NCBI GenBank assembly: GCA_019057865.1
Contig: JAHLWP010000046.1
Span: 1 to 25,775 of the forward strand
Direction: 5' to 3'
DNA: 25,775 bases
DNA from: Promethearchaeota archaeon
GTDB taxonomy: Archaea; Asgardarchaeota; Lokiarchaeia; Sigyniarchaeales; SOKP01
Part shown: positions 4,509-25,469 of the stretch, in pieces
Numbering within the stretch: position 1 is the first letter of the stretch
How the letters are laid out: each line of letters starts with the position of its first letter
Position numbers and translations under genes: made by a program
The notes under the pieces: generated by a model
What the model saw: only the letters and a program-made list of their open reading frames with translations
The model's database searches: none
What the model was told of the DNA's origin: nothing

Positions 4509-4817
4509 TCATATTAACAACATCGATGAGCTATTTCTCAGCATTGGAATTTTTAAACGTTCATCATATAATCTTTCAAATAAGGATGCAAGAAATTCTT
4601 GTTTTCCAAATTTTAAAAAATGATCAACAAAATATTTTATATTAGTTTCCTTATCTTCTAGTAATTTCATCCAAGCGTGAATTTTATATCGACTAAGAAT
4701 ACTTAAATAATAGCTCAATAAGTAGATATTAAATAATTTTGATTGAATTGGAATATCTGATTTTGTTACTCCAAAATCTTTTTGAAATTGGGATTTTACT
4801 CTACTATATTCTTTCAC
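4509..4817 (-). pseudogene. YaaC-family protein, C-terminal fragment
   Basis: IYLLSYYLSILSRYKIHAWMKLL...YFVDHFL matches the YaaC C-terminal pattern (Y-L-L-x-Y-x-L-S-x-L-x-R-Y-x4-W-xx-L-L). It is only 102 aa, so the N-terminal part is missing. Confidence 0.6.
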
Positions 4818-9486: not shown

Positions 9487-10968
9487 CTATAAATACACTC
9501 GAAAATTATAATTTAAGATTTCATTGTGCCACTCTAATAAATATTCTTGTTCAACTCTTCCATTATCTAATATAAAAGTAGCTAAATTTTCTAATTCAGA
9601 ATTTTTGGAATTACAAAATTCTTTAATAGATTTTAATTGGCTTTCAGGAACGGGTCTATAAGGGAAGGATAATTCTGGAGGTATTTTTATTATTTTAATA
9701 TTGTCTACTTCTAAATTGTTTATAATTTCTCTATAGATATTACAGCCCCCAAGATCATAATCTACCCATAGAAAATAATTAGCTTCAGGTTTATTTCTTA
9801 TAATATCCATAAGAATTTTCTTTCGAAAATACCCAGAAATACCCATTCCTTTTATAAAGATAAGTAGAGCATTATTCGTGTTGACCCAATTATCTAATAC
9901 CAATTGAGCGAAGACAGCGTAATTTTCGATTAATAAGACGAGATTACCTCTAAAATTTATTTTTTTTATATTTGTGTAAGATAAATTAGAAAACGAAACT
10001 GATGGACCACCAATTTTAATAGAATTACCATCTTGCATTTGTAAAATTAGTTCACCTGAAAAAGTAAATGAATCTAAAGCTAGAATTAAGCCAAGATCGT
10101 CACAAATTTTCCCAGAAAATTTTTGTATAATAGAATTAATATCATTTGAGTATTTATCAAGAATTTTTGACGGGTCTTCTTTAATCATGATTGGAGAATT
10201 TTGAAATGCCCTTGCTGATACTTCTCGTAATGTTAAATTGTCTCTATAAATTTGATACCATGTACATAGACCATATAGTATTATCAGGTATTTTGGGGGA
10301 TTTATTGCTGAATTTTTCGGAATAATAGACGATTTTTCTAATGTATTCCACATTGGATCATTTAACTCTAACCCTTTTAACTGATCTTCTAATAAGTTGT
10401 ATAATATTCTTTTATTTTCATCATATAGCTTAAGATTTTTCTTATCGAGTGTTTGTAAAATAAAATCTTTACCCATCGAAATTTGCTCTTCAACACTTAG
10501 AAACCCTATTAAATTCTTAATCTTCTTTTTTCCTAGATCTGTTAAAAGAATGTAGTTTTTTTCTTTATTTGATTTTTGAACAACAAGTGTTTTTTTTAAA
10601 ATTAGTCCTTTTTGAATAAAACTGTTAGTTATCTCATCAAATTTTATATCTTGATACTTTGCTTTTAGTTTTTTATTCCAGATTTTTTCATTAATTTTAT
10701 CATTCCATAAAGAAGTAAAAACTGATTTCAAAAATTGGAGATCAATATCTTTTAATTTGTAATCCTTAACAGGAACAATACACCTTTTTATTTTTTCTTC
10801 TTTTCTACGCCTCCCCCATGTGTTTTTATGATATTGGCATTCTTTTACTTCATAACTATGAAATATTTGATATGGTCCCTCTGTTGTCTTATACTCTTTC
10901 TTAACATACTTAAACAACTCTGCAGAACAATCACATGGTTTTTTATCAATTCTGTTTAATGGCGTCAG
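9487..10968 (-). CDS. jetD: Wadjet JetD-like (DUF2220/Topo VI-A-related Toprim) nuclease
   Basis: LLIENYAVF (Toprim Glu), IKGMG, LWVDYDLGGCNIY (DxD), C-terminal RVEQE, and LREVSARAF...DPSKILD. The track starts at TTG 10917, but the frame is open to CTG 10968, which has GGTGA 5 nt upstream. Confidence 0.88.
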   Translation of the reverse strand: MTPLNRIDKKPCDCSAELFKYVKKEYKTTEGPYQIFHSYEVKECQYHKNTWGRRRKEEKIKRCIVPVKDYKLKDIDLQFLKSVFTSLWNDKINEKIWNKKLKAKYQDIKFDEITNSFIQKGLILKKTLVVQKSNKEKNYILLTDLGKKKIKNLIGFLSVEEQISMGKDFILQTLDKKNLKLYDENKRILYNLLEDQLKGLELNDPMWNTLEKSSIIPKNSAINPPKYLIILYGLCTWYQIYRDNLTLREVSARAFQNSPIMIKEDPSKILDKYSNDINSIIQKFSGKICDDLGLILALDSFTFSGELILQMQDGNSIKIGGPSVSFSNLSYTNIKKINFRGNLVLLIENYAVFAQLVLDNWVNTNNALLIFIKGMGISGYFRKKILMDIIRNKPEANYFLWVDYDLGGCNIYREIINNLEVDNIKIIKIPPELSFPYRPVPESQLKSIKEFCNSKNSELENLATFILDNGRVEQEYLLEWHNEILNYNFRVYL

Positions 10969-13837
10969 TTAAATCACCAGCCTTTTTTACTTCTTGATCA
11001 AAATTGATTAATGTTATTTGAGACTCTTTATTTTGATTTTTCCAGATTTGAATAATATTTGGAAAGATTCTAATATATCCAGGTGTAGGAGTATAAGGGG
11101 AAATACATATTAACTTTTTTTCTGGTAAATGTTTTTCAATCACTAAAGCTAAAAGTTCTTTATGATCATCAGCAATGTTTTGATCAAATTCATCCCATAC
11201 GGAGAAAGATGAAGAAGATTCAGCCAAAATAGACATTTCAAAGGCAATGGAAGCCCTAAGTCTTTCACCCTTGCTAAAATTTGAATATTCAATTGGATCT
11301 AAAGAACCACCAACAGTATTAGATACATTTATACTTAGTTGATAATCACCTTCGATTTCTGTTTCATTGAATTTTAATTCTCCATCTAAATTGAGCCCTA
11401 TCATTATAGATTTATAACGCTTACTTACTATATCCTGCCATTTTAAAAGTTTGTCTTTTAAATTTGATACAGTGATCAGAAATTTATTTTGACATTCATC
11501 TTTCTCAAATTCAAATTGGTGATTTAAATCATCTAAAGTCTGAATATTATTCTTAGTATCCTCATAAAGCTTTACTATTGATGAATCTACATCTTGATAC
11601 TGGTCTAGTGCAGACTCAGTTTTTAAAATTTCATTATTAAAATATTCTACATTTTCAACAGGTTTTTCAATTTGAGATAATATCTGATTAGCTTCTTTAT
11701 TTATTCCCTTATACTTATAGTTATCATCGATTGTATAATTTTTAACAAGACAGATTGATTCATTTTCGAACTCAATACTTTCTAATATGTTTACTCTCTC
11801 AACATAGTTATTAAAATCGTCGGCTAAATTATTCAATTCTAATATCAAAGAAGTTAATTCTTGATTATTTTCCTCAATTAAATTCCTTTTTTCCTCTATA
11901 TTTCTTTTAGATCTTTCAATATCTTCATTTAGACGCTCAATATTTTGTTGTGGAAATGAAAGTATGGAATGCAGTTCATCTAATCTTTTAGAAGATTCTA
12001 TTTTTTCTTTTTCAAATATATCAATTTCAGTCTCTTTATTTTTTAAATCTATATATTCAAGTTTTTTATTAACAAGTTCTAGCATTTGCTTTTTTTCTGA
12101 GATTTCAGATTTTAGTTTTGTAATTTTATTATTTAAACTCTCAATGTGTTTAACTATTCTATTTTTTTCTTTTTCTATAGCTCCTTTTCCGATCATATAG
12201 CTAGTGTCAGTAAAATAGAATTTTCTTTGAGAATAAATATTGTAAGTATATCCATCTTGACAAAAGATTTTTGAATATGGTGCTTGAATTAAGAATTGCT
12301 CTTTTTCTTTAACTGAATTAGCAAAGTAAAGCCCTCGCATCATTAAGTCCATTAAATCCTCAATAGTTTCAAAGGAAAATAATTGAGGGCATATTTCTAT
12401 TATAGAAGACCAATCTCTTAATCCTTTTTTTCCTTTTAAAACATATTTCTTTCTCGGACTAAGAATTATTGCATTAGATTTTAAATCTCTATTTAATTCT
12501 TCAGCTAATCTACCATCTTCTTCTTTTACTACTATTCCAATTTTATTATGTGCCAAAATGTTTTCTATGTAATCATGCCATATATCTGTTCCCTTTTTAA
12601 ACTCCAACGTCTCAAACAGTAATTCAGATGAGATATTTTTTTCTCTAAATCTCTTTTGAATTTTAGAGATATAAGCCGGTATAACAAATTTTTCATGTTC
12701 TATCTCTTTTAAGTTTATATTATAATCTTTTAACTTTTTTTGCAAATTTATCTTATTAGCTTTTAATTCTTCTAACTCTTGCTCTTCTTTTTTCTTCTGC
12801 TGTTCAATTTCAATTTGGTTAGAAATTTCTGAGACTGAAACTTTTAGAGTATCCAAATATGAGATTACTGCTTCATAGCTCGTTGTAAATTCCCTTATTT
12901 TATATTTCAAATCATCTATTTTTTTAATTAGCTCCTTTTTCTCAACCTGTTGGGTTTGAAATTTAGTTTTTATGTTTGAAATTTTTTGAGTGATTGATTT
13001 TATTTCATTTCTCAATTTTTCAATCTCTTCAGATAATTTTTCATTATTTTCATAAATAGAAAAAAATTTCTCCTCGATCTCATTAAAATAATTGAAAGTA
13101 TTATGGATTTTAGCTTTAATTTGATTTAGCTTTAATTCAGCTAAAATTTTTTCAAATTCTTTTTTTTTCTGAAATCTTTTATACGTTCCTTCAATGGTTT
13201 GGAATTTTAGATGTAATTCTCTCAATCTTTTATTCGCATCTTCAAGTTTTTTATTTGCCTCATTGAGCTCATTTCTTGCAGTGCTAACTTTGTCTTTATA
13301 TTCATCTATCCCTATAAACCTTGAAACTGCATTGTATCTTTCTTTAGGAGATTTTTGAGTCCATATGACCGTCTGTTGATCATCAATAAATATTAATGGA
13401 TCATTCCAATCACCAAAATTTTTTAATTCTTCTTTTGTGATTCTTCGTTCTTCCCCCCTAATTTTAATATATTTTCTGTTCCTTTTCTTTTTCCCTTTAA
13501 AAGCCTCTAAACCTATAATAACTTCTTCATCAATAGGATATTGATTCAAAGCATCTGGACCTGTATTTAAAACAGTTAGTTCTATTTTTGCGTGATTTTT
13601 ATAGACTTTTCTTTTAACACCTCCATCATCAATTTCTTCAAAAGTGAAAAATTCATTATCACGCTCAATTTTTCTACCTAATACATACTGAAGAGCATTT
13701 AATATATGTGTTTTCCCAGATCCACTACTGCCAGTGATATAACATCGATCCATCAAATCTCCGAACGTTATGATTGTATTTTTATGACTTCCAAAATTCT
13801 GAAGAAAGATTTTTGTAGGTATTGGAAACTTACTCAT
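10946..13837 (-). CDS. jetC: SMC ATPase (JetC/MksB-position subunit) with Smc5/6-like head and hinge
   Basis: LQNFGSH, Walker A GSSGSGKT, Q-loop DDQQ, two long coiled coils around a hinge (LFETLEF...WHDYIENIL...IVV), signature FSKGER, Walker B VWDEFD, CISP. Probable ATG at 13837 with GAGGAGGGAG upstream. Confidence 0.88.
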   Translation of the reverse strand: MSKFPIPTKIFLQNFGSHKNTIITFGDLMDRCYITGSSGSGKTHILNALQYVLGRKIERDNEFFTFEEIDDGGVKRKVYKNHAKIELTVLNTGPDALNQYPIDEEVIIGLEAFKGKKKRNRKYIKIRGEERRITKEELKNFGDWNDPLIFIDDQQTVIWTQKSPKERYNAVSRFIGIDEYKDKVSTARNELNEANKKLEDANKRLRELHLKFQTIEGTYKRFQKKKEFEKILAELKLNQIKAKIHNTFNYFNEIEEKFFSIYENNEKLSEEIEKLRNEIKSITQKISNIKTKFQTQQVEKKELIKKIDDLKYKIREFTTSYEAVISYLDTLKVSVSEISNQIEIEQQKKKEEQELEELKANKINLQKKLKDYNINLKEIEHEKFVIPAYISKIQKRFREKNISSELLFETLEFKKGTDIWHDYIENILAHNKIGIVVKEEDGRLAEELNRDLKSNAIILSPRKKYVLKGKKGLRDWSSIIEICPQLFSFETIEDLMDLMMRGLYFANSVKEKEQFLIQAPYSKIFCQDGYTYNIYSQRKFYFTDTSYMIGKGAIEKEKNRIVKHIESLNNKITKLKSEISEKKQMLELVNKKLEYIDLKNKETEIDIFEKEKIESSKRLDELHSILSFPQQNIERLNEDIERSKRNIEEKRNLIEENNQELTSLILELNNLADDFNNYVERVNILESIEFENESICLVKNYTIDDNYKYKGINKEANQILSQIEKPVENVEYFNNEILKTESALDQYQDVDSSIVKLYEDTKNNIQTLDDLNHQFEFEKDECQNKFLITVSNLKDKLLKWQDIVSKRYKSIMIGLNLDGELKFNETEIEGDYQLSINVSNTVGGSLDPIEYSNFSKGERLRASIAFEMSILAESSSSFSVWDEFDQNIADDHKELLALVIEKHLPEKKLICISPYTPTPGYIRIFPNIIQIWKNQNKESQITLINFDQEVKKAGDLTDAIKQN

Positions 13838-14504
13838 TTGTGTTATCTCCCTCCTCCTCATTTTTGATTGAATCAGAAAGATTCATCTGTCTGCTTTTTG
13901 TTCTAATTTTCGCTCTAATTTGTAAGTAATTCTCGGGTAAAAATGATTCAAAATGAATATCATCATAGTCTTCATGGATTATTTGTTCAAAAATGTCTTT
14001 AAGCATTTCTGTAGATATACATGCCTTTAAGACAGCTGTAGGTTGATAGATTTTTATGCCATCTTTATCAATTTCTCTTATCCATCGATTACGTTTTAAT
14101 TCTCTTAAAATTCCTCTCACCTCGTTAGCATTTATGCTGGTTGATTGGAGTTTTTGTTCTAATACATCAAAAGTAGGACCATTTAAAAATTCAAACTCAT
14201 GAAGAAGAATTATGCAAGCAAGTGCTATTGCTTTATTAGAAATTGCTCTTCTTTTTGACTCATAAGCATCAAGATTTATTATAATTGGTACAATTTTCTC
14301 TTGAGTTTGTACAAATTGTAAGATTCCTTCAAAATATCTATTAGCTAAAGTAATAAAATTATCAATTTCTTGGGTGTTAGAAAAATTCAATAATTTTGAA
14401 TTTATCCCTATACCATTTGAGGTCCCTTGAAGGATTATTGAAATTTTTCTCATTGTTTCTTTATCTAATCCAATTTTATCAATATTAAATAATTTTTTTT
14501 GCAT
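13830..14504 (-). CDS. jetB: Kite (tandem winged-helix) subunit, JetB/MksE-like
   Basis: 224 aa, between kleisin and SMC. The C-terminal wHTH pattern AIALACIILL...EVRGILRELKRNRWI...YQPTAVL resembles DUF4194/MksE. Confidence 0.65.
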   Translation of the reverse strand: MQKKLFNIDKIGLDKETMRKISIILQGTSNGIGINSKLLNFSNTQEIDNFITLANRYFEGILQFVQTQEKIVPIIINLDAYESKRRAISNKAIALACIILLHEFEFLNGPTFDVLEQKLQSTSINANEVRGILRELKRNRWIREIDKDGIKIYQPTAVLKACISTEMLKDIFEQIIHEDYDDIHFESFLPENYLQIRAKIRTKSRQMNLSDSIKNEEEGDNTNE

Positions 14505-15865
14505 TAATCTCCCTCAATTAATTCATCACTAATTATATTATATTTCCTAGTAGTAAAATTTTCAATATGCCTTTTCAAATCTTTAATTGCATGAAATTCA
14601 TCTTCAATATGAATTTTGTTTTCCATCGATAAAGTGTAAAACATTAAAAGATTTTCTAGAAAAGTGCGTGGATTTCTATTTCTAACAATACGATAATCTT
14701 GTGCTGGATTAAATTTTACGGCCTTCTCTAATAGAGTTTCTTTTAATGGGATAAGATCTGATTTTTCAATAAGGTGTTCAATAAATGATATTTCTTCTAA
14801 AATAGAACTTGGAGACTTAGGTAATTCCTCAAACTCAGGATCTTCTACTTTTCTTAATACGTTGATTAAAGCTCTTTTTATATAATAAGAATTTATTTTC
14901 ATTGGAAATTGTACTGGAATAGCACAAGAATTACATTCAAAGAATAACTTTTGCCAATCTATCTTATCTAAATTTGTTAAGATAAAATCCTCCATTTTAA
15001 TAAATGGCTTTTCTAATAAGATTCCTTTTGATTTAGCTAACCTTAAATCGTATTTAGTTGAAGCTAAGTTCAATAATTGAATAATAGTGTCCAAAAGATG
15101 CATACTTATCTGAACATGATGTTGAATAGTTATCTCAGAGTCATTTAGGTCATCTCTATTTTGAATTTCTAATACCTGATCCATTAATTTATAGATTTCT
15201 TTAACATAATCATCAAATTCGGGATCTTCCAAGATAGTGTTGCCTTGTCTTTTTAAATTTTCAGAAAGATCTTTTAACGCATTAACAAGCCCGTATACCC
15301 AGCTTAATTCCAAACCATATTGCTCAAAATTAATAAAAGACCGGATCATCTCAACCATTACAAATAAATCCTCAAATACACCATAACGTTTCATTGCTAT
15401 TGTTTCTAATTTAAGTTTTTGATAATTATGAACGAGAAATTTACCCATCGAGGTAAGTCTAAGAATTTCATTATTTTCATTTAAAGGATTTAAAATTGAT
15501 CTACCTATAAGATTTGATAAAATATTATCAAACTGCTCCCAAGAAAGAGATTCAATATCTTTACAGTACCCTTCAAAGACTTTATATTTAGATAAGTAAC
15601 CCTCAGAGCTTCTTTTCATTCCAATATAGAATAAAATTTTCATAGCTGTGTTTAAATCTTCTGGAGTGTGAAATTTATCTATGTTTTTTCCAAAAGATAA
15701 TAGCATTTTATCAGCAGCTTTAGATTCTTGTGATTCACAAGACATTACTTCTTCGTGGCTTATTTTTGGAATTAATTTTTTGAGGCTTTTTTGAGTATCT
15801 TCAGAGAGAAAAAATTGATTCTTCTTATTTCCGAATTTCTCTTGTTTTTCAGTATTTTCTTTCAT
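14504..15865 (-). CDS. jetA: Kleisin subunit, JetA/MksF-like
   Basis: N-terminal wHTH (FDNILSNLIGRSIL...LRLTSMGK), helical middle region, and C-terminal TFLENLLMFYTLSMENKIHIED resembling the kleisin C-terminal wHTH. Size and position match jetA. Confidence 0.65.
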   Translation of the reverse strand: MKENTEKQEKFGNKKNQFFLSEDTQKSLKKLIPKISHEEVMSCESQESKAADKMLLSFGKNIDKFHTPEDLNTAMKILFYIGMKRSSEGYLSKYKVFEGYCKDIESLSWEQFDNILSNLIGRSILNPLNENNEILRLTSMGKFLVHNYQKLKLETIAMKRYGVFEDLFVMVEMIRSFINFEQYGLELSWVYGLVNALKDLSENLKRQGNTILEDPEFDDYVKEIYKLMDQVLEIQNRDDLNDSEITIQHHVQISMHLLDTIIQLLNLASTKYDLRLAKSKGILLEKPFIKMEDFILTNLDKIDWQKLFFECNSCAIPVQFPMKINSYYIKRALINVLRKVEDPEFEELPKSPSSILEEISFIEHLIEKSDLIPLKETLLEKAVKFNPAQDYRIVRNRNPRTFLENLLMFYTLSMENKIHIEDEFHAIKDLKRHIENFTTRKYNIISDELIEGD

Positions 15866-15868
15866 CCT

Positions 15869-16585
15869 TTAGTTTTCCTCCCCTAAATTCCGTTCTAAAT
15901 GAAAATATTTTAGTTTATAGAATTTTTCTCCGTTAGATCTAACATAATAATCCAATAAACCCCTGTCTACTAATTCATTCAATCTATTCCGCATTTTTTG
16001 ATCATAAGTAGAGATTGATTTGTCCCAACCTGGAGCTTCAAGTTCCCGTATAAATACTTTAAGGTTCATAGGATCGTTCTTTTTATCTACAAATTTTTCC
16101 AGAATTTCCAAATCTATAAGATCTAAATTCATATAGTTTGGAATAATTACATAATTAAATGATGTATAATTATAATCTAAAATTTCGTATGGGTGCAATA
16201 TATACTTATCTGAATTTAAGCCATCTCTCAAGAGAATTGTATGTAAATGATACTTCAAGGGGGTTAAATTAAGAAATATCTGCCAATCTTCATAAGCTTC
16301 TTCTAATTTTTGCCTTAAGAATCTAATGTTTCTAATAATTTCAGGATAATTTAAGGATATAAAGAATTCTGTGGTTTCTCCTTGATAAATTAATGGAAGA
16401 GTACCTTTAAGTTGTTCAATAACCTCTATGTCTTTTTCTTTATTGAAAATTAAGTATGTAATCTTGTCAACTTTTTCATTCTTAAATATTAACTGTCGAA
16501 TTCTCGAAAAATGAACCAAGGATATATCAGATTTTTCTTTATACTCATGATTAATAGGAATCAACTCTAATATGCCCCGATTCAT
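15869..16585 (-). CDS. CARF-like Rossmann domain + winged-helix protein (Csa3/DUF6293-like regulator)
   Basis: Alpha/beta N-domain with VDKITYLI and QIFLNLTP (cf. CARF 'D-x-v-x-l' and 'i-x-v-N-l-T/S-G-G'), then a C-terminal wHTH LDLIDLEILE...RNRLNELVDRGLL...GEKFYKL. Confidence 0.55.
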   Translation of the reverse strand: MNRGILELIPINHEYKEKSDISLVHFSRIRQLIFKNEKVDKITYLIFNKEKDIEVIEQLKGTLPLIYQGETTEFFISLNYPEIIRNIRFLRQKLEEAYEDWQIFLNLTPLKYHLHTILLRDGLNSDKYILHPYEILDYNYTSFNYVIIPNYMNLDLIDLEILEKFVDKKNDPMNLKVFIRELEAPGWDKSISTYDQKMRNRLNELVDRGLLDYYVRSNGEKFYKLKYFHLERNLGEEN

Positions 16586-16588
16586 ATC

Positions 16589-19201
16589 TTACACCTCTTT
16601 ATAACACCAATCCTCAAATTTATCCAATCTATTGACTTTAATCTTCAAATTTCGCCGTACTGGTTGTAAGATGTTAGCATTTGGGAAAATTTCTCTTATT
16701 TTTTGGAATTCTTCACCCTGTCTAGTCTTATCAGTATCAACCTTTAAAACGATTATCCAAAATAGATCTTCACTATAGTTTTTAATTGCTTCGAAAAACC
16801 TTTGCTTGGAATCATAGTCAAAACGGTCAGTTGTCTCATCAATGACAATAAGACCGTTGAATAGTTTTGCTAATGCAACCATTATACCCAAAGCTATGGC
16901 CCCTTGCTCCGAACCGCTGGGCATGTCATCTGCTATATCTATCACCTTTCCATCTATTGTTATTATCTTTGGTTTCAAGTAAATCTTACCACTCCTATCC
17001 ACGAATTTCTCAAACTTTAAGAACCGCTCTTTAGTGATTTCTTTATAGAAGCGTTCAGCATATTTAATGATTTTATTCATTACTTGTTCTTCAATCTCAT
17101 CTAGTTGAATGTTACTTTTTATTTGAGCACAAATAATTTGTATAGAGGGGATGATGATATCTTTCAATGTTTCATTTAACTCAATGTCCTTACATAGTTT
17201 TTTATACGTTTCTTGGTTCTCTGAAAGGAATTCATTAAAATTGTTAACAATTTCTAAGAATTCATCATTAATCCTAATTTTTTGTTCAATATACAATTCA
17301 AATTCCTTAATCGATTCGATGAGTGATTTAGCCTCATCCATCTTGAACTCTATTTCTGAACCTTCATCCTTTAATTCCTCTTTAAAGGCACTTTTAATTT
17401 TTTCAAGAAGTCCATTAATTTTTTCAAAGCTAGTCTCTGTAGTTTTCTTTTTTGAATGCTTGTTAATAAACTTCCGTGCCATTGTCTTTTGTTCCGATAT
17501 TAACTCATTCCAAGAATCTACAGTCTCCTTGGTGCTGACAACTTTTTTTAAATAGTTTTCAAAATCATTTAGGTGTTGGATTAATACAGGCTCGATTTCT
17601 TTAATCTTTTTCAATGATTCTTCAAGATCTTTTAATTCTGAAATACTTTCTTCAATCTGTTTTGATAACTCTTTAACAATTTCCTCAGCCATCTCTTCAT
17701 CGTCATCTTCAGTTAATACAGGGAGAAGATTTCGATCCATATTGAGGGGGTTATTATTATTGATGTATTCTTTCAATTCTGACAAGGACATGTATAGCAT
17801 TAACAATTTATTTCCGGTTGAATCAAATCCTACTTTTCCATAAAGATTAAAGATTTCATCTTCATTAGTAAATGAAATTGGATTTTTTATTCTCATGAGT
17901 TGTGATTCTCGGCGCAGAATGGCATTTGTAACATCTTTTTCTTCAATATTATGCTTCGAAAGTATCTTTTTTCGTTTAGAATATAGTGTAATACCTTCAT
18001 TAAATTTCTTTATATACTCGTTGATTTTTTCAGGTATTTTCAATATTTCCTCAATTTGCTTGACAAAGTCCAAATTAAATCCATCTACTAAATCCTTTAC
18101 CTCATCATTAAAATACCTTGAAAAATCAATGCTAATCTCTTTTATTTCATCACTTGGAGGATTAATTTCAATTTCTCGATGAAATTGGGATAACTTAGCG
18201 AATAAATCTTTAATTGCTTTAACATCCTTATAATAAGATTCCACTATTTCTTCTACTTCCTTTAAATCCATTGAATTCAATAAATCTTCTAAATCCTTGT
18301 ACTTTTCTTTCTTGTTAAAAATATTGCTCTGTAATTTTTCTGCTGTTTGCTTATAACCTTGATATTCTTCTTGGTCCTTTTTAACAGTTGATTTGACCAA
18401 TTTCAAGATTTCTTCATAATTATTATCCAGCTTTAATATCTTGATTAAATCTTCATATTCAAGTTTTCCATCACTATATTTACAAACTGCTTTCAAATCA
18501 TCTATAAAACTTGCATGCTTATTGTATATTTTTCCCTTCTGAGATTCAAGCTTTCCAATAGCTTTGGAAGTATAATTATTAATACTGTCAATCGCATCAC
18601 TCTTGTCCTTTAGATCTTTATGTAAAATGTCTTTAATAGCTTCGTAACCACCACCCGTAGTTCCAAATTTTTCACTAGCATTTTTAAATTCTTGAATGTT
18701 TTCAATAGCTATTAAGCGGTCGATGATCTCGGGATGAAGTTTAATTTTTTTAAGCTCTTCAGGTAAAATATCAATTGAAGTGCCCTTGCTCAATATCTCC
18801 GTACGAGGAATTATATCAATACCATTTTTACCCTCAAATACTAATTTCTTTTTTGTTTTTGGTAAAGTTTTGTAATCTTGAAAACTCACATTGGATCTCT
18901 GAAAGGTAACATGTTCTTTTGTCTTGGTTATCTCTCTTGTGAGCCTATATAATATACCTTTGAAAGTAAATGTCAATATGATCTTCCCATTAGTCCCATC
19001 AACCAAAATATGCTTCAAATCAACTCTGTTTCTTGGTCTAAATCCATTAAACACATAATTAAAGCATTTAATTAAAATAGTCTTACCCTCTCGATTATAA
19101 CCATAAATAATCACTAAATTTGAGTCAAATGGTATTTTAGCGGTCATACCTGAAATATTTTCTATTTGTATATTTATAGGTCTTAATGAGCTAACTGTCA
19201 T
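16589..19201 (-). CDS. rad50: Rad50/SbcC-like ABC ATPase lacking the CxxC zinc hook
   Basis: Walker A GYNREGKT, long coiled coils, signature PSGSEQ, Walker B/D-loop VIDETTDRFD; directly downstream of mre11 (ATGA overlap). Confidence 0.82.
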   Translation of the reverse strand: MTVSSLRPINIQIENISGMTAKIPFDSNLVIIYGYNREGKTILIKCFNYVFNGFRPRNRVDLKHILVDGTNGKIILTFTFKGILYRLTREITKTKEHVTFQRSNVSFQDYKTLPKTKKKLVFEGKNGIDIIPRTEILSKGTSIDILPEELKKIKLHPEIIDRLIAIENIQEFKNASEKFGTTGGGYEAIKDILHKDLKDKSDAIDSINNYTSKAIGKLESQKGKIYNKHASFIDDLKAVCKYSDGKLEYEDLIKILKLDNNYEEILKLVKSTVKKDQEEYQGYKQTAEKLQSNIFNKKEKYKDLEDLLNSMDLKEVEEIVESYYKDVKAIKDLFAKLSQFHREIEINPPSDEIKEISIDFSRYFNDEVKDLVDGFNLDFVKQIEEILKIPEKINEYIKKFNEGITLYSKRKKILSKHNIEEKDVTNAILRRESQLMRIKNPISFTNEDEIFNLYGKVGFDSTGNKLLMLYMSLSELKEYINNNNPLNMDRNLLPVLTEDDDEEMAEEIVKELSKQIEESISELKDLEESLKKIKEIEPVLIQHLNDFENYLKKVVSTKETVDSWNELISEQKTMARKFINKHSKKKTTETSFEKINGLLEKIKSAFKEELKDEGSEIEFKMDEAKSLIESIKEFELYIEQKIRINDEFLEIVNNFNEFLSENQETYKKLCKDIELNETLKDIIIPSIQIICAQIKSNIQLDEIEEQVMNKIIKYAERFYKEITKERFLKFEKFVDRSGKIYLKPKIITIDGKVIDIADDMPSGSEQGAIALGIMVALAKLFNGLIVIDETTDRFDYDSKQRFFEAIKNYSEDLFWIIVLKVDTDKTRQGEEFQKIREIFPNANILQPVRRNLKIKVNRLDKFEDWCYKEV

Positions 19202-20619
19202 TTTCTTACCTCCTTTTCAAAACTACTGTCTATAATACTTATAATGTCGGTGTTTTTCCAATCTTTTTTCAATATTTCATTAAATTCAGGTAATAATATA
19301 TTGATTATGTCAGCAGCATAAACCTTTATGTTCTTGGCCCCTTTTTCGAAAAAGAAATTATGGTCTTCTTTTCTCATTTTATTAATAATTTTCTTCACCT
19401 GGTCTGATAAAAGGAAGATCTTCATCTGGTCAAGCCTTTTAACAATGTCTTCAGCTTGTTCTAAAGTCCTTGCAAAAACACCATCTAAATTTAATATTTC
19501 TGTTCCATCAGGAGCCTCAATATCCAAACTCGGAGTCGTTAAATCCTTTTTTCTGATATCAACGATTTGAACATCTGGAACCTCGTTTGATATCACTTCT
19601 AATATGTTGTTGATTTCAAAGGGTAGAAGAGATCCTAGATTACCAGTTAAAATTGGGATGATAATGAGCGATTTAATATTTTGTTTTCCAATTATCTGTT
19701 GTTTTAAATTCTCAACGATTTTTCTCCATTCGTTCTCAATTATAACCAAGTCTTTATCAGTAACATCATATAATAATGAAACGGCAGGCATAGTCGAAAG
19801 AAATGGAATAAAACCAATTTTTAATGTATCTGTATCAAGTAACAGATATCCATGTGGTTCTTGTAAGTTAGCACCTTTCTTCTTCAATTTTCTATCTATG
19901 TATTCGTATTTTTCTATTAGTCCCTCACGAATTCCAATCCAAGTAGGCATGGAAGCCGGTACGAGAATAACATTATTGAAACCATCAACTTTTGTAATAT
20001 AAGTATGTTCATGACCATTCAATACCAAATTGAAATTCTTGGAAAGTAACTCAACGAGCTCCTTACTAATACCAACATCCTCACCACGCCTGACCATGTC
20101 TATGTGTAGAAGCATAATATTCTTATCTTTAGCTACTTTAGCTGCTGCTTGACAATATTCTTTTATCTTCAATTCTTTTGTTCGATGATTCTCCTTTTCT
20201 TGAATATTTCCAAACCAAAACCTGACTCCATCTATAATCAACGGTTTTTCAAATTTACTTGCTGCCGGATCAGCATATCTTTTAGGATTTGTCATAAGAA
20301 AGTGAAAATTTTTAGCTGTCTTTGAAATCAAATGGAGTATGGCTTCATCTTCATGGTTACCTAATAATGCATACCATGGGATATTTGTTGATTCTATGAT
20401 TTCTGTAATTGGAATTTGCTGTTTTGAACCCTCTACATGACTAATTGGATGTCCTTTATTTGTAAATTTTTTATCGAAGAAATCTCCTAAGACTAATATA
20501 GCTACTGGTTGGTGCTTCAATATTTCAGTAATAAATCGTGAAAACTCATCTATCTTGTTATAATCTGGGTGATAAGCATGGATTAAATGGGTATCAGCAA
20601 TGATTGCAATATTACTCAT
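19198..20619 (-). CDS. mre11: Mre11/SbcD-like metallophosphoesterase nuclease
   Basis: All five motifs are present: ADTH, GDFFD, GNHE, LLH, GHEH. Probable ATG at 20619 with GAGGT upstream. Confidence 0.88.
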   Translation of the reverse strand: MSNIAIIADTHLIHAYHPDYNKIDEFSRFITEILKHQPVAILVLGDFFDKKFTNKGHPISHVEGSKQQIPITEIIESTNIPWYALLGNHEDEAILHLISKTAKNFHFLMTNPKRYADPAASKFEKPLIIDGVRFWFGNIQEKENHRTKELKIKEYCQAAAKVAKDKNIMLLHIDMVRRGEDVGISKELVELLSKNFNLVLNGHEHTYITKVDGFNNVILVPASMPTWIGIREGLIEKYEYIDRKLKKKGANLQEPHGYLLLDTDTLKIGFIPFLSTMPAVSLLYDVTDKDLVIIENEWRKIVENLKQQIIGKQNIKSLIIIPILTGNLGSLLPFEINNILEVISNEVPDVQIVDIRKKDLTTPSLDIEAPDGTEILNLDGVFARTLEQAEDIVKRLDQMKIFLLSDQVKKIINKMRKEDHNFFFEKGAKNIKVYAADIINILLPEFNEILKKDWKNTDIISIIDSSFEKEVRK

Positions 20620-23053
20620 CTTCAATACCTCTGATTTTTAGTATTTCGTCAATAGCATCATCTGGTACATTCAAAAGATTTGCTATTCTTCTGAATTCTT
20701 CCTGAACATCTTCATCAAAACCTCCCGGTCCACCCCATATCTCTTCGTCCCATAGCATCTTTTTCACTTCTACCTCAAAATGGTTCACTTTCATTGGTAA
20801 TGGTAAATTCCTCCCAACAAGTTTTTGAAATCCAACAGCAATCCCTACATCAGCATATTTAACGAAATCATCATATGGACCTAAATCAGAAGGTACATTC
20901 CTAAATAAGATCTGTCTCATTGAATTAACTGGTAAACCCATTGCAATCATCCACCCTAATTGAGTTAAAAGTGTTGGGTCTAGTCTAATAATATTTTGTA
21001 ATACTAATCCAATTCCAATTCCAAATTTCCTTGCTCGAACTTGTATCTGATTAAATAATTCTATTTGAGCAGATGCTTTTCCACTCAATAATGCTGTAGC
21101 TTCCTCTATAATAAAAAGACAAGGAGTAATATTTGGTTCAAACCCTCGTCGTTCTCTTTCATTAACAAGATAATTTAATAAAATTCTCTGGATTAGTAAT
21201 TTTACTTCGGGAGGTAATGAAGATTCATCTATTATTAGAGTCTCTCCACAATCAGCGCAGTGTAATGCGAAATCAACTAAATTATAATCATCATTTAAGA
21301 TCATTCCAATATGATTATTTCCATCCATATAAGGATTTCCTTCCGAATCTTCCCTGAATTGTCTTATTGATTCAAAGTAGTTAATTGACTCATGAATAAT
21401 ATGTCCATTTTCGTCATGACCACCCCAATTGAATATCAATCCAAGATATCTTCGGTTATTTAATAAAAATTCTCTCAGGGCTCTTACAGCGGTATCATAT
21501 GAGGTCCTTTGGAAGCCATATTCATCACGTCTATCATGATCAAATTTTAAAGGTCGTGTAAAGAACCAATTCACAAAATCTATTGTTAGCCTAAATTCGT
21601 TAAAACCCTCAGGTCTTAGTTCTGGATGTTCACGTAAGTAATAGTGTCTTAAGTATGCTGGAATTACTCCATAAGCCACTTTTGTTTCTAATTCTCTTAT
21701 GATCTCTCGAATTGGAATAAAGGATAGTGGAATTTTCATTGGTCTTGGCTCAATAAATCTAAAGTCACTTGGTACTTCTGAGTCTTGGTCTGCTTCTATT
21801 CTCATGCCTACATCAATCAAATGGATCATTGATGTCTCATCTCTATGACAAAACTTCATAGCCAACATTGCAAGATCAAGACCCCAATCCTTTGGTTTTA
21901 AACACTTCACATATTCACCCACATCATCAAAGAGAATAATACCTAAACGAGTCCATTCTTCTAAATAATCTTGTTCTGTTAAATGTCTTAGCCTTAATTT
22001 TTCATACTCGAAAATCATCTCCTTCAATAAGTTCCCCTTACCAGCCCCCGAAATGGCAACCAGAGCAAAATGAATTAACTCATTTCCTTTGAGGACAATA
22101 TTATATGGAGAATTAATTTGAGGAATTTCTCCAATGGGAATTTTTACATATGTATTATCAAAATTAGAATACAATCTATTTACAATCTCCTGAACTCCTG
22201 ATACTGAACCTTCCATTCCGACTCTTAAAGGACTTACACTAGGACTTGGTATATCATTTTCAATAACAAATAATAAATCTATTACAGCAATTTCATGTAG
22301 TTCACTTATAACACCAAGAGTTTGTTTATTATCCTCATTAAAACAAATAAGATCTCCATATTTAAGCTCTCTATTTTTAATAAATGCTTTGATATTTGCC
22401 ATTTTATTATCTAAGATTAAGGCTTGCGCGTTATCATTCATAAATTCTTTAAGTGTTTCTAAATAATCTGTTTGATCGTTTAAATTGTTTTTATCTCCGA
22501 TTTCCACTAAAGTTCTGAGAATCTCTTTTCGAAGTTGTTCATTATTTAAAATATAATTTTTGAAAAAATTGGTATAAATTCTTATAAACCTCTTAAATCT
22601 TTCTGATGAAATCGTTTCTGCTACTAATTTTAAATGCATAAATCTATATTTTTTCCAAATATTAATTAGATCTTCATCTACAACTTTAAAGACATCAAGT
22701 AATAAAGCTGGAACCGCATTTTCATTTACTAAAATTGCATTTCCTAAAAAGTCTGAAAGAGAAGATTGTAAGATAAAATTTTTAGCTGGATTTAATATAA
22801 TTTCTCCTTCTGAACTAAGATAGGTTAAACTAGGCAAATCAGTGTTAGGTGCGATTAGTTTCTGTTCATATATTAAAAAAATATTATCATTTTCATCTCT
22901 TACATATATTGGCATTGACTGATCTAAGGGATAAATAGGAGCAGGAGCTTCATTCTTATCAAGAATTATTTGTGAAGTGAAATTGTCTAATTCATTTATT
23001 ATTCCGACCTTAATTCTTTTTGTTCCTTTTCTTAATTTTTTATTTTCGACCAA
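20612..23053 (-). CDS. herA: HerA-family (FtsK/HerA) ATPase/DNA translocase, divergent and enlarged
   Basis: Walker A AISGAGKG, FDDVGEY (HerA D-x-x-GEY), Walker B IIEEA, arginine finger RARKFGIG, sensor LQN...LD, and HAS-barrel-like YGDLI...LGVI. TTG start with GGAGGT upstream. Confidence 0.88.
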   Translation of the reverse strand: MVENKKLRKGTKRIKVGIINELDNFTSQIILDKNEAPAPIYPLDQSMPIYVRDENDNIFLIYEQKLIAPNTDLPSLTYLSSEGEIILNPAKNFILQSSLSDFLGNAILVNENAVPALLLDVFKVVDEDLINIWKKYRFMHLKLVAETISSERFKRFIRIYTNFFKNYILNNEQLRKEILRTLVEIGDKNNLNDQTDYLETLKEFMNDNAQALILDNKMANIKAFIKNRELKYGDLICFNEDNKQTLGVISELHEIAVIDLLFVIENDIPSPSVSPLRVGMEGSVSGVQEIVNRLYSNFDNTYVKIPIGEIPQINSPYNIVLKGNELIHFALVAISGAGKGNLLKEMIFEYEKLRLRHLTEQDYLEEWTRLGIILFDDVGEYVKCLKPKDWGLDLAMLAMKFCHRDETSMIHLIDVGMRIEADQDSEVPSDFRFIEPRPMKIPLSFIPIREIIRELETKVAYGVIPAYLRHYYLREHPELRPEGFNEFRLTIDFVNWFFTRPLKFDHDRRDEYGFQRTSYDTAVRALREFLLNNRRYLGLIFNWGGHDENGHIIHESINYFESIRQFREDSEGNPYMDGNNHIGMILNDDYNLVDFALHCADCGETLIIDESSLPPEVKLLIQRILLNYLVNERERRGFEPNITPCLFIIEEATALLSGKASAQIELFNQIQVRARKFGIGIGLVLQNIIRLDPTLLTQLGWMIAMGLPVNSMRQILFRNVPSDLGPYDDFVKYADVGIAVGFQKLVGRNLPLPMKVNHFEVEVKKMLWDEEIWGGPGGFDEDVQEEFRRIANLLNVPDDAIDEILKIRGIEDE

Positions 23054-24278
23054 TTCTCATTAACCTCCATTTGGTAATATCTTTAACATTTCTACCTAAT
23101 TTGTGTTTATCTGGTTTATTTTTATTATAAAAAGCAAGTATAATGGAAAGGAGCTCTTCTTTATACATATTGCAACATGTATGTGCCATAGTAAGTGAAA
23201 TCGAATGACTCTTTCCCAGTATCATTTCTAAACATATAATTTGATGTGCTAATTCTGATGTTAGAGCAGGAGAATATCCTATTCTTATCCAAGAAGAAGA
23301 TATATAAATCCATTCTCCCTCAATTAATTCTTTATAGCCCCAAGTAAAATAATGAAACTTTAATTCATTCCAAAAGTTATTATAATCATCCGGTTTGACC
23401 TCAAATATAGGGGATGGAATTGCTATATCATCTATCCATGCTTCCAGAAGATCAAAATCAGTAAAAAATTTATCTTTTAGATTTTTACTTAATTCTGCTA
23501 AAAATGGCAACTTTATATTTTTTAATTCTTCTTTCTCTGAAATTAAATTAATTATTTCTTTTGCTCGATTATCCACCGAATTTATTGCTTCATCAAGTTC
23601 AGAGGCTAAATTTTGGCTTACTGCTCTCAGTTTACTTTTATGGGACACAAAAATAACAGGGAGTTTGTATTTTTTTATGTCATCAAAAATTAATTTTAAA
23701 TTATCTAATAAATATTTACGAATCTCATTACTTAATGTAGGTATTGATTTTATGAATGTGAATATTACCGGTAAATCTAATATTGCCACAGCTATTTTAT
23801 CTGGAAACACTTCCCAAGGTTTATAAGAATCACCTTGTAATTGGCACCCTGATTTGTTAAATGGACAATTGCTACAATTTAGCGTTTTAAATTTCCTAGC
23901 AAGTAACACACACAAAGCAAATCTTATTTCTAAAATAGTTCTAATGCTTGAGTGAGATAACCGATCTCTTCCTTCAATGACAAATCTTTGGTCATAAGAC
24001 ACAATATCTGACTTTAAGTTCTCTACTCCCCATATGACAGCACTAGCTCCAATTAGAATTGGGGATTCTACCTCGTTATTTGATACTCTTGCTGTGGTTC
24101 CATCTGTTCCAACAAGACAATATTTTTCTGCTAAATTCTTAATGATTGTGGGTGATAGCAATGTCTTTTCGGTTGGTCCTAGGGAAATTCTACCATTCCA
24201 CATATGATAATGAATTTTAAGAATTTTGAAAATTTCCTTTAAATTTTCCTTTGTTAAATCAATTTTAGTACTAATCAT
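23040..24278 (-). CDS. nurA: NurA-family 5'-3' nuclease (RNase H-like fold), divergent
   Basis: VGTDGT (NurA DGS motif), ILDLP (second Asp), VSHKS, and C-terminal SLTMAH (cf. PLxxAH); immediately upstream of herA. The probable start is ATG 24278 rather than 24380. Confidence 0.75.
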   Translation of the reverse strand: MISTKIDLTKENLKEIFKILKIHYHMWNGRISLGPTEKTLLSPTIIKNLAEKYCLVGTDGTTARVSNNEVESPILIGASAVIWGVENLKSDIVSYDQRFVIEGRDRLSHSSIRTILEIRFALCVLLARKFKTLNCSNCPFNKSGCQLQGDSYKPWEVFPDKIAVAILDLPVIFTFIKSIPTLSNEIRKYLLDNLKLIFDDIKKYKLPVIFVSHKSKLRAVSQNLASELDEAINSVDNRAKEIINLISEKEELKNIKLPFLAELSKNLKDKFFTDFDLLEAWIDDIAIPSPIFEVKPDDYNNFWNELKFHYFTWGYKELIEGEWIYISSSWIRIGYSPALTSELAHQIICLEMILGKSHSISLTMAHTCCNMYKEELLSIILAFYNKNKPDKHKLGRNVKDITKWRLMRIGRK

Positions 24279-24302: not shown

Positions 24303-24310
24303 TTTATAAA
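24303..24310 (-). promoter_or_regulatory. Putative TATA box for the nurA-to-jetD operon
   Basis: TTTATAAA lies 25-32 nt upstream of ATG 24278, the spacing expected for an archaeal leaderless or short-leader transcript. The AT-rich background lowers specificity. Confidence 0.4.
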
Positions 24311-24796
24311 TATAATGTAAAATCTGATTTGGTTTATACCATAAAAGTATAAACCGGCAAAATGTATTACATTTGTACATAAACTCTGATTTAATTGATG
24401 CTTTTATATCTTATCGATAATAATGCAAGATATAAAACGTTCTTGACTGATTACAAATATCGAAATATTTCTAATTCTTAAATTATGCTACTTTTTTTAA
24501 ATAATAAGCTTTTATTATTCTTTTTAGCAAACATAATCTTTCTAATTCTACAGAATAGATTACTATACTTATCTATTGGCATATTTTTTACTGATTCCTT
24601 ATGATTATTGAGAAAACATAATTTAATAATTGAATTATTAATCAGCAAATTATTAATACCGGATTTTTTTGAGATTATTCCTTATATTCCTAATTTTCTT
24701 AAATTTTCAAGAGCTAGATTTTTTCCTAACTCTAGTCTACCAACTCATTTTAATTCAATTATTCAGGTATAAAAAAAGTCAAATTTATTAATTAAT

Positions 24797-24841
24797 ATTT
24801 ATATCATAATGTGCAATATAATGTAACATTGTGATATAAAT
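24797..24841. promoter_or_regulatory. 16-bp inverted repeat (operator) overlapping the abiEi start
   Basis: atttatatcataatgt (24797-24812) and acattgtgatataaat (24826-24841) are 15/16 complementary with a 13-nt spacer. Confidence 0.7.
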
Positions 24842-25469
24842 GAGTTCTTCACTTTTAATGAAAAAATTACATCTCACCGGTAAGAAATTTGTAACTTCTG
24901 ATGGAATTAAGTTATATTGTAACACACTTAATTTAAAATATGTAGATACGATTCGATATTTAATTAGACAGAGATATCTTGTTAGAATATTCAAGGGTAT
25001 ATTTTATGTGAAAAATTTAAAAGAGATTAAATATGGATCAGTAAAATATAACCATTTAGAACTTGTAGCTAATGGGCTAAAACTAAAAGGAATAGAAAAG
25101 TGGTATTTTGGTCTATATACAACTTTAAAATTAAATAACACCACACATGAATATTTTACAACAGAATACGTAATCTCTGAGAATTTTTATCGAAATAAAC
25201 CAATTACGATTAATAATCGCAAGTTTAAATTTCATAAATTAAAAACCTCATTACTCAATTTTGGAATAGTTGAAAATAAATATAAGTTCTCGGATTTAGA
25301 AAAAACTTTCTTAGATTTAATTTATTTAGGTGTGTATTCTAGCAAACCAAAAGTAAAAATTTTAATGGATATAGTAGATTATTCAGATAATTTGTCAAAA
25401 ACAAAAATTAGAAAGTATGCCACAAATTACCCTAATTCTGTAAAAAAAATAATAGAAGAGATAAACTAA
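24840..25469 (+). CDS. abiEi: AbiEi-family (type IV TA antitoxin) wHTH transcriptional regulator, orphan
   Basis: N-terminal wHTH with LVRIFKGIFYV, then WYFGLYTTL and FG...SDLEKTFLD, the pattern typical of AbiEi antitoxins. Confidence 0.75.
   Translation: MSSSLLMKKLHLTGKKFVTSDGIKLYCNTLNLKYVDTIRYLIRQRYLVRIFKGIFYVKNLKEIKYGSVKYNHLELVANGLKLKGIEKWYFGLYTTLKLNNTTHEYFTTEYVISENFYRNKPITINNRKFKFHKLKTSLLNFGIVENKYKFSDLEKTFLDLIYLGVYSSKPKVKILMDIVDYSDNLSKTKIRKYATNYPNSVKKIIEEIN

Follow-up and report, generated by a model that had tools for sequence, protein, structure and literature searches.

The DNA considered here is the entire contig JAHLWP010000046.1, 25,775 nucleotides (nt) long and referred to below as the window, from the genome of a Promethearchaeota archaeon of the class Lokiarchaeia (GCA_019057865.1; 4.26 Mb, 29% GC; genome G000, contig C33 in our numbering). 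On its minus strand, from 24278 to 9487, it carries nine tightly packed open reading frames (ORFs), all real, in which genes for DNA end resection are followed by those of a Wadjet-like system. The gaps at the successive junctions are −14, −14, −4, +3, +3, −1, −5 and −20 nt, which bears out the overlaps or 3-nt spacing that a preliminary description of this DNA had claimed throughout the train. That description took the nine genes for one system. The conserved unit, however, is a five-gene cassette with its operator, and the two halves of the train occur alone and are exchanged. The nine genes are two separable modules, the five-gene resection cassette and a divergent Wadjet. In the order of transcription they are:

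23040..24278, minus strand: nurA, divergent NurA-type nuclease, 412 amino acids, with a four-cysteine insert (from language-model features and invariant residues)
20612..23053, minus strand: herA, long HerA ATPase/translocase, 813 amino acids (Pfam DUF87 1e-6, PADLOC HerA 1.5e-10)
19198..20625, minus strand: mre11, Mre11/SbcD-type phosphoesterase nuclease (Metallophos 8e-15)
16589..19201, minus strand: rad50-like, hook-less Rad50/SbcC-like ABC ATPase, 870 amino acids (SMC_N, LmuB 7e-11, Rad50_Halo 0.004)
15869..16585, minus strand: gene 5, Csa3-like CARF plus winged-helix regulator, the fixed fifth gene of the cassette (from a structural model, Foldseek and VIA)
14504..15865, minus strand: jetA, JetA/MukF-type kleisin (Foldseek on a model with a predicted local distance difference test score, pLDDT, of 67)
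13830..14504, minus strand: jetB, kite-like protein in the JetB position (atlas leads MAGE 0.83 and DUF4194 0.79, both below 0.9)
10946..13834, minus strand: jetC, SMC ATPase in the JetC position, 962 amino acids (SMC_N 1e-13, SMC_prok_B 2e-20, PADLOC JetC1 5e-14)
9487..10965, minus strand: jetD, JetD-like Toprim nuclease with an N-terminal CxC...CxxH zinc finger (PADLOC JetD1 4e-11)

Hidden Markov models (HMMs) pick out HerA, Mre11, both ABC ATPases and JetD, mostly weakly, and the catalytic motifs of these proteins are kept across ten loci. In HerA the Walker A, the EEA of Walker B and an RARKFG motif are all conserved, and phosphoesterase motifs I–V of Mre11 are intact in the window and kept across the same loci. 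NurA found no match in a Pfam search or in a profile–profile comparison to other NurAs. Its assignment comes from ESM language-model features (0.95, the ten best family matches all being NurA) and from residues D59, E117, D168 and H366, which are invariant. HMM searches of the PDB with alignments of NurA, gene 5, JetA and JetB gave no significant match. The Rad50-like protein conserves Walker A, a PSGSE signature and Walker B; its 870 amino acids contain neither a CxxC zinc hook nor an H-loop histidine and, judged by sequence, the cassette ATPase is Rad50-like, not a canonical Rad50. As in the nurA-herA-mre11-rad50 operons of Sulfolobus, Pyrococcus and Thermococcus, the four functions, that of NurA being a probable one, stand together with catalytic motifs retained. 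Unlike those operons, the window cassette is accessory and rare, its HerA is 813 amino acids long, its NurA falls below family cut-offs and has the four-cysteine insert, its Rad50 is without hook and H-loop histidine, and it has a Csa3-like gene and an operator of its own. The cassette is a paralogue of the archaeal resection operon that bears a regulator and has no zinc hook.

The Wadjet order A-B-C-D is that of four adjacent genes and is kept in relatives. The three best Foldseek matches of the JetA model are to E. coli JetA (8as8_E E 7e-4; range 7–8e-4), followed by MukF and type II JetA; the structural alignment with E. coli JetA is full-length but of low template-modelling (TM) score. JetB found no match in HMM searches. 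It was modelled onto a middle segment of JetA (286–325) and scored 0.72, the best control scoring 0.00 and the mark for such scores being attained by 58 of 80 solved pairs and 2 of 110 mismatched ones. Partner pLDDT in this complex is at least 66 and agreement between runs extends to at least 1% of contacts; the result may mirror resemblance to solved kleisin–kite pairs. JetC has intact head motifs (Walker A, an FSKGE signature and a DEFD Walker B). In the PDB its profile scores highest with heads of archaeal Smc (2e-20) and with yeast Smc6 (4e-19), no chain named JetC being among the top 60 matches; the His-less TP/SP switch occurs in JetC too. The Toprim catalytic motifs of JetD, IEN and DYD, are conserved, and its score with Pfam JetD_C is 19.1 bits, under the cut-off of 22. 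Though the preliminary description started jetD at the CTG at 10968, the codon that matches the ATG of relatives is the ACG at 10965, one codon further on. In relatives this ATG sits within the last jetC codons, and ACG stands there in the window and in one 92–95%-identical relative. Starting at the TTG at 10917 would leave out the CxC that is conserved in the zinc finger. The probable start is non-ATG, the ACG at 10965, with the CTG and the TTG as alternatives.

With types I–III of Wadjet (JetABCD, also MksBEFG) this module shares the kleisin-kite-SMC-Toprim order (its kite being putative), the JetA fold and the catalytic Glu and DxD of JetD, as well as, in the model, a kite placed on the kleisin middle segment. 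Unlike them, it has a JetA and JetB that match no PADLOC model, a short SMC with its nearest profiles in archaeal Smc and yeast Smc6, an extra zinc-finger/winged-helix N-terminus on JetD with an effector that is swapped in relatives, and a usual place behind a resection operon. JetC and JetD match PADLOC models of several types weakly, which gives no assignment to type I, II or III, and profile comparisons of JetA and JetB with type III JetA and JetB failed to match. The module shares most structural features of Wadjet and fits none of types I–III. Relatives of its JetC were not found in viral contigs or PLSDB plasmids; in the plasmid search the NurA of the Loki_b32 operon (introduced below) had no match and the HerA of the CR_4 operon had only four weak haloarchaeal ones.

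The relatives of the window HerA that were read with their context all lie in the order nurA-herA-mre11-rad50-CARF. Six of the 11 distinct cassette loci are followed by a Wadjet of the window family (window, L034, L028, L039, L052 and L036/37), one (L044) by a type III Wadjet in PADLOC terms (JetA3 9e-43, JetB3 2e-11, JetC3 5e-52), and four by other genes. Counted from the other side, 14 window-family Wadjet loci comprise six behind the cassette, three behind other resection operons and five without. An obligate nine-gene system was rejected, since 4/11 cassettes and 5/14 Wadjets are without the partner. The three other nurA-herA-mre11-rad50 operons that precede a window-family Wadjet (L054, L051 and L049; called Loki_b32, L051 and CR_4) have Mre11s that give no BLAST alignment with the window Mre11, and their Rad50s and HerAs align weakly at most; among their NurAs, that of L051 alone is clearly related to the window NurA (31%). 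The Loki_b32 operon has a canonical NurA and a hooked Rad50 and lies behind a short Argonaute system. [At L047:7793-10708, on contig C21 of genome G095, of the same genus as the window genome, a short Argonaute and a restriction-endonuclease-type partner lie on the same strand directly 5′ of this nurA-herA-mre11-rad50-Wadjet train. Elsewhere, at L094:5847-17699 (G098:C30), the BREX genes brxA-brxB-brxC come after a resection operon of the Loki_b32 type.]

The window JetC is 66% identical to those of Loki_b32 and L051, and 36–38% identical to those of the cassette-linked L028 and L039; a single clade of cassette-linked JetCs was rejected (approximately unbiased test, p 2e-5). Linked loci always have the resection set first, on the same strand, with 3–188 nt between the halves. 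Among 400 genomes of the phylum the window Wadjet family was found in five, and in four of the five it immediately follows a resection operon. [A weak JetD-like match in G056 lies outside any Wadjet context, and a match in G047 is on a 1.8-kb contig.] Of 10 common resident-type operons that were sampled, none has a Wadjet behind it. These pairing counts come from a small number of related loci and are offered without a test statistic. The preliminary description had counted on the two halves meeting in other genomes, and they do so even with non-orthologous partners: the pairing is recurrent, non-orthologous both ways, and not obligate.

Gene 5 is present in all 11 cassette loci. Its model (pLDDT 81) has Csa3 (2wte, E 9e-5) as the best Foldseek match and, compared with Csa3–cA4 (6wxq) by VIA, gives Z 11.3 and a root-mean-square deviation of 9.5 with 175 aligned, which points to a Csa3-like architecture of CARF plus winged helix. 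In trees, the window lies with L034 for gene 5, nurA and herA but with L039/L028 for mre11 and rad50, which indicates that mre11-rad50 were exchanged as a block. The partnership of gene 5 with nurA and herA fits its being the cassette's own regulator. Its being a Rad50 subunit was also considered, and rejected since the trees do not place it with mre11 and rad50. What the preliminary description overlooked is a palindromic operator beside the nurA TATA box:

24331..24355, no strand: palindromic operator GGTTTAT-N11-ATAAACC, predicted binding site of the CARF winged helix-turn-helix (wHTH) protein, conserved upstream of nurA
24303..24310, minus strand: archaeal TATA box TTTATAAA, 25–32 nt upstream of the nurA ATG, its position conserved across cassette loci

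The palindrome is found 75–83 nt 5′ of nurA in all 10 cassette loci in which the region upstream of nurA is available, with 0–2 mismatches in eight and 4 in two. The window operator is the best match in its genome to the operator profile (25.2 against 19.4 for the runner-up), a profile built including the window site. The operator was not found 5′ of other resection operons or of the jetA genes scanned. The nurA transcript is predicted to be leaderless. A sigma-70 promoter scan gave chance level, the sigma-70 consensus being inapplicable to archaea. In Sulfolobus islandicus, Csa3a binds and activates the herA and nurA promoters (PMC5587795), so that there too a CARF-wHTH factor is tied to these promoters in an immunity context. 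The window regulator differs in being encoded inside the operon, and a search of the window genome for Cas1 did not find it. Unrelated CARF regulators of Csa3/HFX_2341 type recur beside lone Wadjets and other resection operons, and L058 retains a decayed gene 5 remnant. The sites of these regulators are:

L058:236-1206
L056:1948-2754
L093:6537-7298
L095:4696-5598
L099:4454-5251

In an alternative reading the two modules have a promoter in common and act separately. There would then be two independent defences under one inducible promoter, the cassette directed against linear or broken DNA and the Wadjet against circles, with the Wadjet one of several passengers. This is possible, though rather unlikely. 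What stands behind the cassette varies (PD-(D/E)xK-HerA with MBL, DinG, UvrD, GmrSD or the type III Wadjet), BREX can stand behind an operon of Loki_b32 type, and the neighbourhoods are defence islands in which restriction-modification, Gabija-like and Argonaute genes occur. However, Wadjet is the commonest passenger of the cassette (7/11) and stands behind four resection lineages. As three of these four lineages are without the operator, the promoter alone fails to explain the pairing.

The window genome has a separate nurA-herA-mre11-rad50 set on contig C68. Mre11 of the C68 type was found, at E 1e-40, in 47 of 161 genomes of the class (14 of the 40 high-quality ones; other Mre11 types are outside this count), and that of the window type in 2 of 161. 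An accessory set, as the preliminary description had proposed, is what these results uphold: the window cassette is a rare accessory set and not the resident repair locus, and its identity with the housekeeping operon was rejected on the same two grounds. Several C68-type operons share one neighbourhood, and the resident repair operon looks patchy in Lokiarchaeia. With the nine window proteins, tblastn against their own genome found zero paralogues, and a single-protein pattern scan of the genome contigs with HerA gave no match. In tetranucleotide composition the operon does not stand out (rank 52 of 239), and recent distant transfer is therefore not supported.

The resident rad50 (G000:C68:28589-30678) is split by a frameshift near 29758, either real or an assembly error. 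In relatives it is mostly one ORF of ~700 amino acids, and in G142 it is split as well. This possible lesion bears on the improbable alternative of a repair safeguard, in which the cassette would resect accidental chromosomal cuts by JetD for homologous recombination, or would make up for a resident operon that is absent or defective. Resection of ends is what textbooks assign to these proteins, and in G095, G038 and G048 a resident-type Mre11 was not seen with the C68-type query. Such a lack is nevertheless the baseline, as no resident-type Mre11 was seen in 114 of the 161 class genomes at the threshold given; moreover, the cassette is rare and mosaic, has no hook, is linked to CARF and lies in islands. 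The canonical SMC of the window genome (1481 amino acids) is on C80, and a second SMC, of 1164 amino acids, lies at C57:4650-9326, with two small genes behind it whose sizes are those of ScpA and ScpB.

JetABC extrudes DNA loops and stalls on small circles, whereupon JetD makes one double-strand cut. Mre11-Rad50 opens DNA ends, and HerA pumps DNA through NurA. To our knowledge archaea are generally without RecBCD/AddAB. The genes at this locus, with the packing, operator, modularity and recurrent pairing described above, are observed, and what is said of function is taken from known families or inferred. JetABCD cleaves circles and not linear DNA, a linear plasmid evades Wadjet, and the products of JetABCD are eliminated by RecBCD in vitro (bioRxiv 2022.10.04.510915). 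HerA-NurA of T. kodakarensis cuts both strands, leaving no overhangs, and destruction of foreign DNA has been proposed as a role (PMC12977600). These findings, taken with the background just given, favour a relay of cutting and then destroying. The locus would be an accessory one against plasmids or viruses, with two swappable modules acting in sequence, a proposal held at even confidence. It is ranked over shared regulation, which is followed by the repair safeguard and then by the Lamassu-like alarm considered below.

In this relay one transcript from the nurA promoter would be governed by the Csa3-like CARF protein on the palindrome. The Wadjet would linearise the circle of the invader, and the cassette would then degrade the product ahead of religation, much as RecBCD acts in vitro on what JetABCD has cut. 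In kind the whole would resemble a Wadjet joined to a helicase-nuclease that degrades ends. Probably the cassette destroys ends in general and can serve other cutters too, and the coupling would therefore be functional and non-obligate, needing no contact between the halves. A fuller proposal, held with somewhat less than even confidence, is of a two-step regulated immunity in Asgard archaea: a new, effector-swappable Wadjet lineage would linearise circular invaders, a co-transcribed, CARF-controlled HerA-NurA/Mre11-Rad50 paralogue would destroy them, and the pairing would have been assembled several times independently.

Several observations weigh against the relay. The four cassettes without a Wadjet have a Cas4-like (PD-(D/E)xK)-HerA with MBL, DinG, UvrD or GmrSD behind them, and the five Wadjets L048, L064, L093, L056 and L058 have no resection operon directly upstream (L056 and L058 being short contigs). 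One of these five, a 93%-identical relative, has just a gene 5 remnant. Of five operons of the Loki_b32 and CR_4 types that could be read, three have BREX or unrelated genes behind them. With loci as few and related as these, it also counts that defence genes cluster anyway.

The Toprim Glu and DxD motifs are present in each of the seven linked JetDs of which the full sequence was read. Among three lone JetDs read to the same extent, that of L093 has these motifs, and those of L048 and L064 have another domain in place of Toprim. In L048 (12634-14364, G135:C290) this is a Ser/Thr kinase domain (Pfam 7e-43), and in L064 (12903-14288) an RxxxxH domain that is HEPN-like by eye (PDC-M34B 5e-6); the zinc-finger/winged-helix N-terminus is kept in both. 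The sequences are suggestive of the resection operon accompanying the DNA-cutting versions of this Wadjet, in counts too small for a statistical test.

The exchange of the nuclease for kinase or HEPN-like effectors, and LmuB as the best PADLOC match of the Rad50-like protein, bring to mind a Lamassu-like alarm. In this very improbable scheme the hook-less ATPase would sense DNA ends, whether produced by Wadjet or an invader, and unleash Mre11/NurA on host DNA in abortive infection. Lamassu is described as derived from DNA repair machinery (PMC12663957). Lamassu (LmuAB/C) and the cassette are alike in having a Rad50/SbcC-like ATPase, with the weak LmuB match, in a defence setting. The match is, however, limited to the N-terminal ATPase stretch, and the set and order of cassette genes are those of an ordinary resection operon. 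Unlike the Lamassu ATPase, that of the window is accompanied by Mre11, HerA and NurA instead of LmuA/LmuC, neither of which was detected in the PADLOC search.

In a literature search covering sources outside subscription journals, no paper was found that combines Wadjet with HerA and NurA, nor Wadjet with Smc5 and Asgard. This agrees with the preliminary description, to whose author the combined architecture was new, and the locus is apparently a real, modular variant undescribed so far. It bears on what becomes of a plasmid that Wadjet has cut once in cells that have no RecBCD/AddAB, and on whether HerA-NurA of archaea serves repair or acts against invaders (a question raised in PMC12977600). 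Both questions are addressable with one construct. The locus also reveals an Asgard Wadjet lineage with A and B subunits that PADLOC models miss and with swappable JetD effectors, and it supplies a candidate regulator–operator pair.

As to the surroundings of the operon, the preliminary description had placed it among integrase, PIN and AbiEi relics. Searches gave no confirmation of the first two. At 972-2000 and 4509-4817 of the window lie a member of a multicopy ORF family (five or six paralogues in the genome) and a YaaC-like fragment. The supposed AbiEi relic is an intact ORF of the AbiEi family on the plus strand (24840-25469; PADLOC 1e-47), partnerless up to the contig end and with a 63% paralogue on C86.

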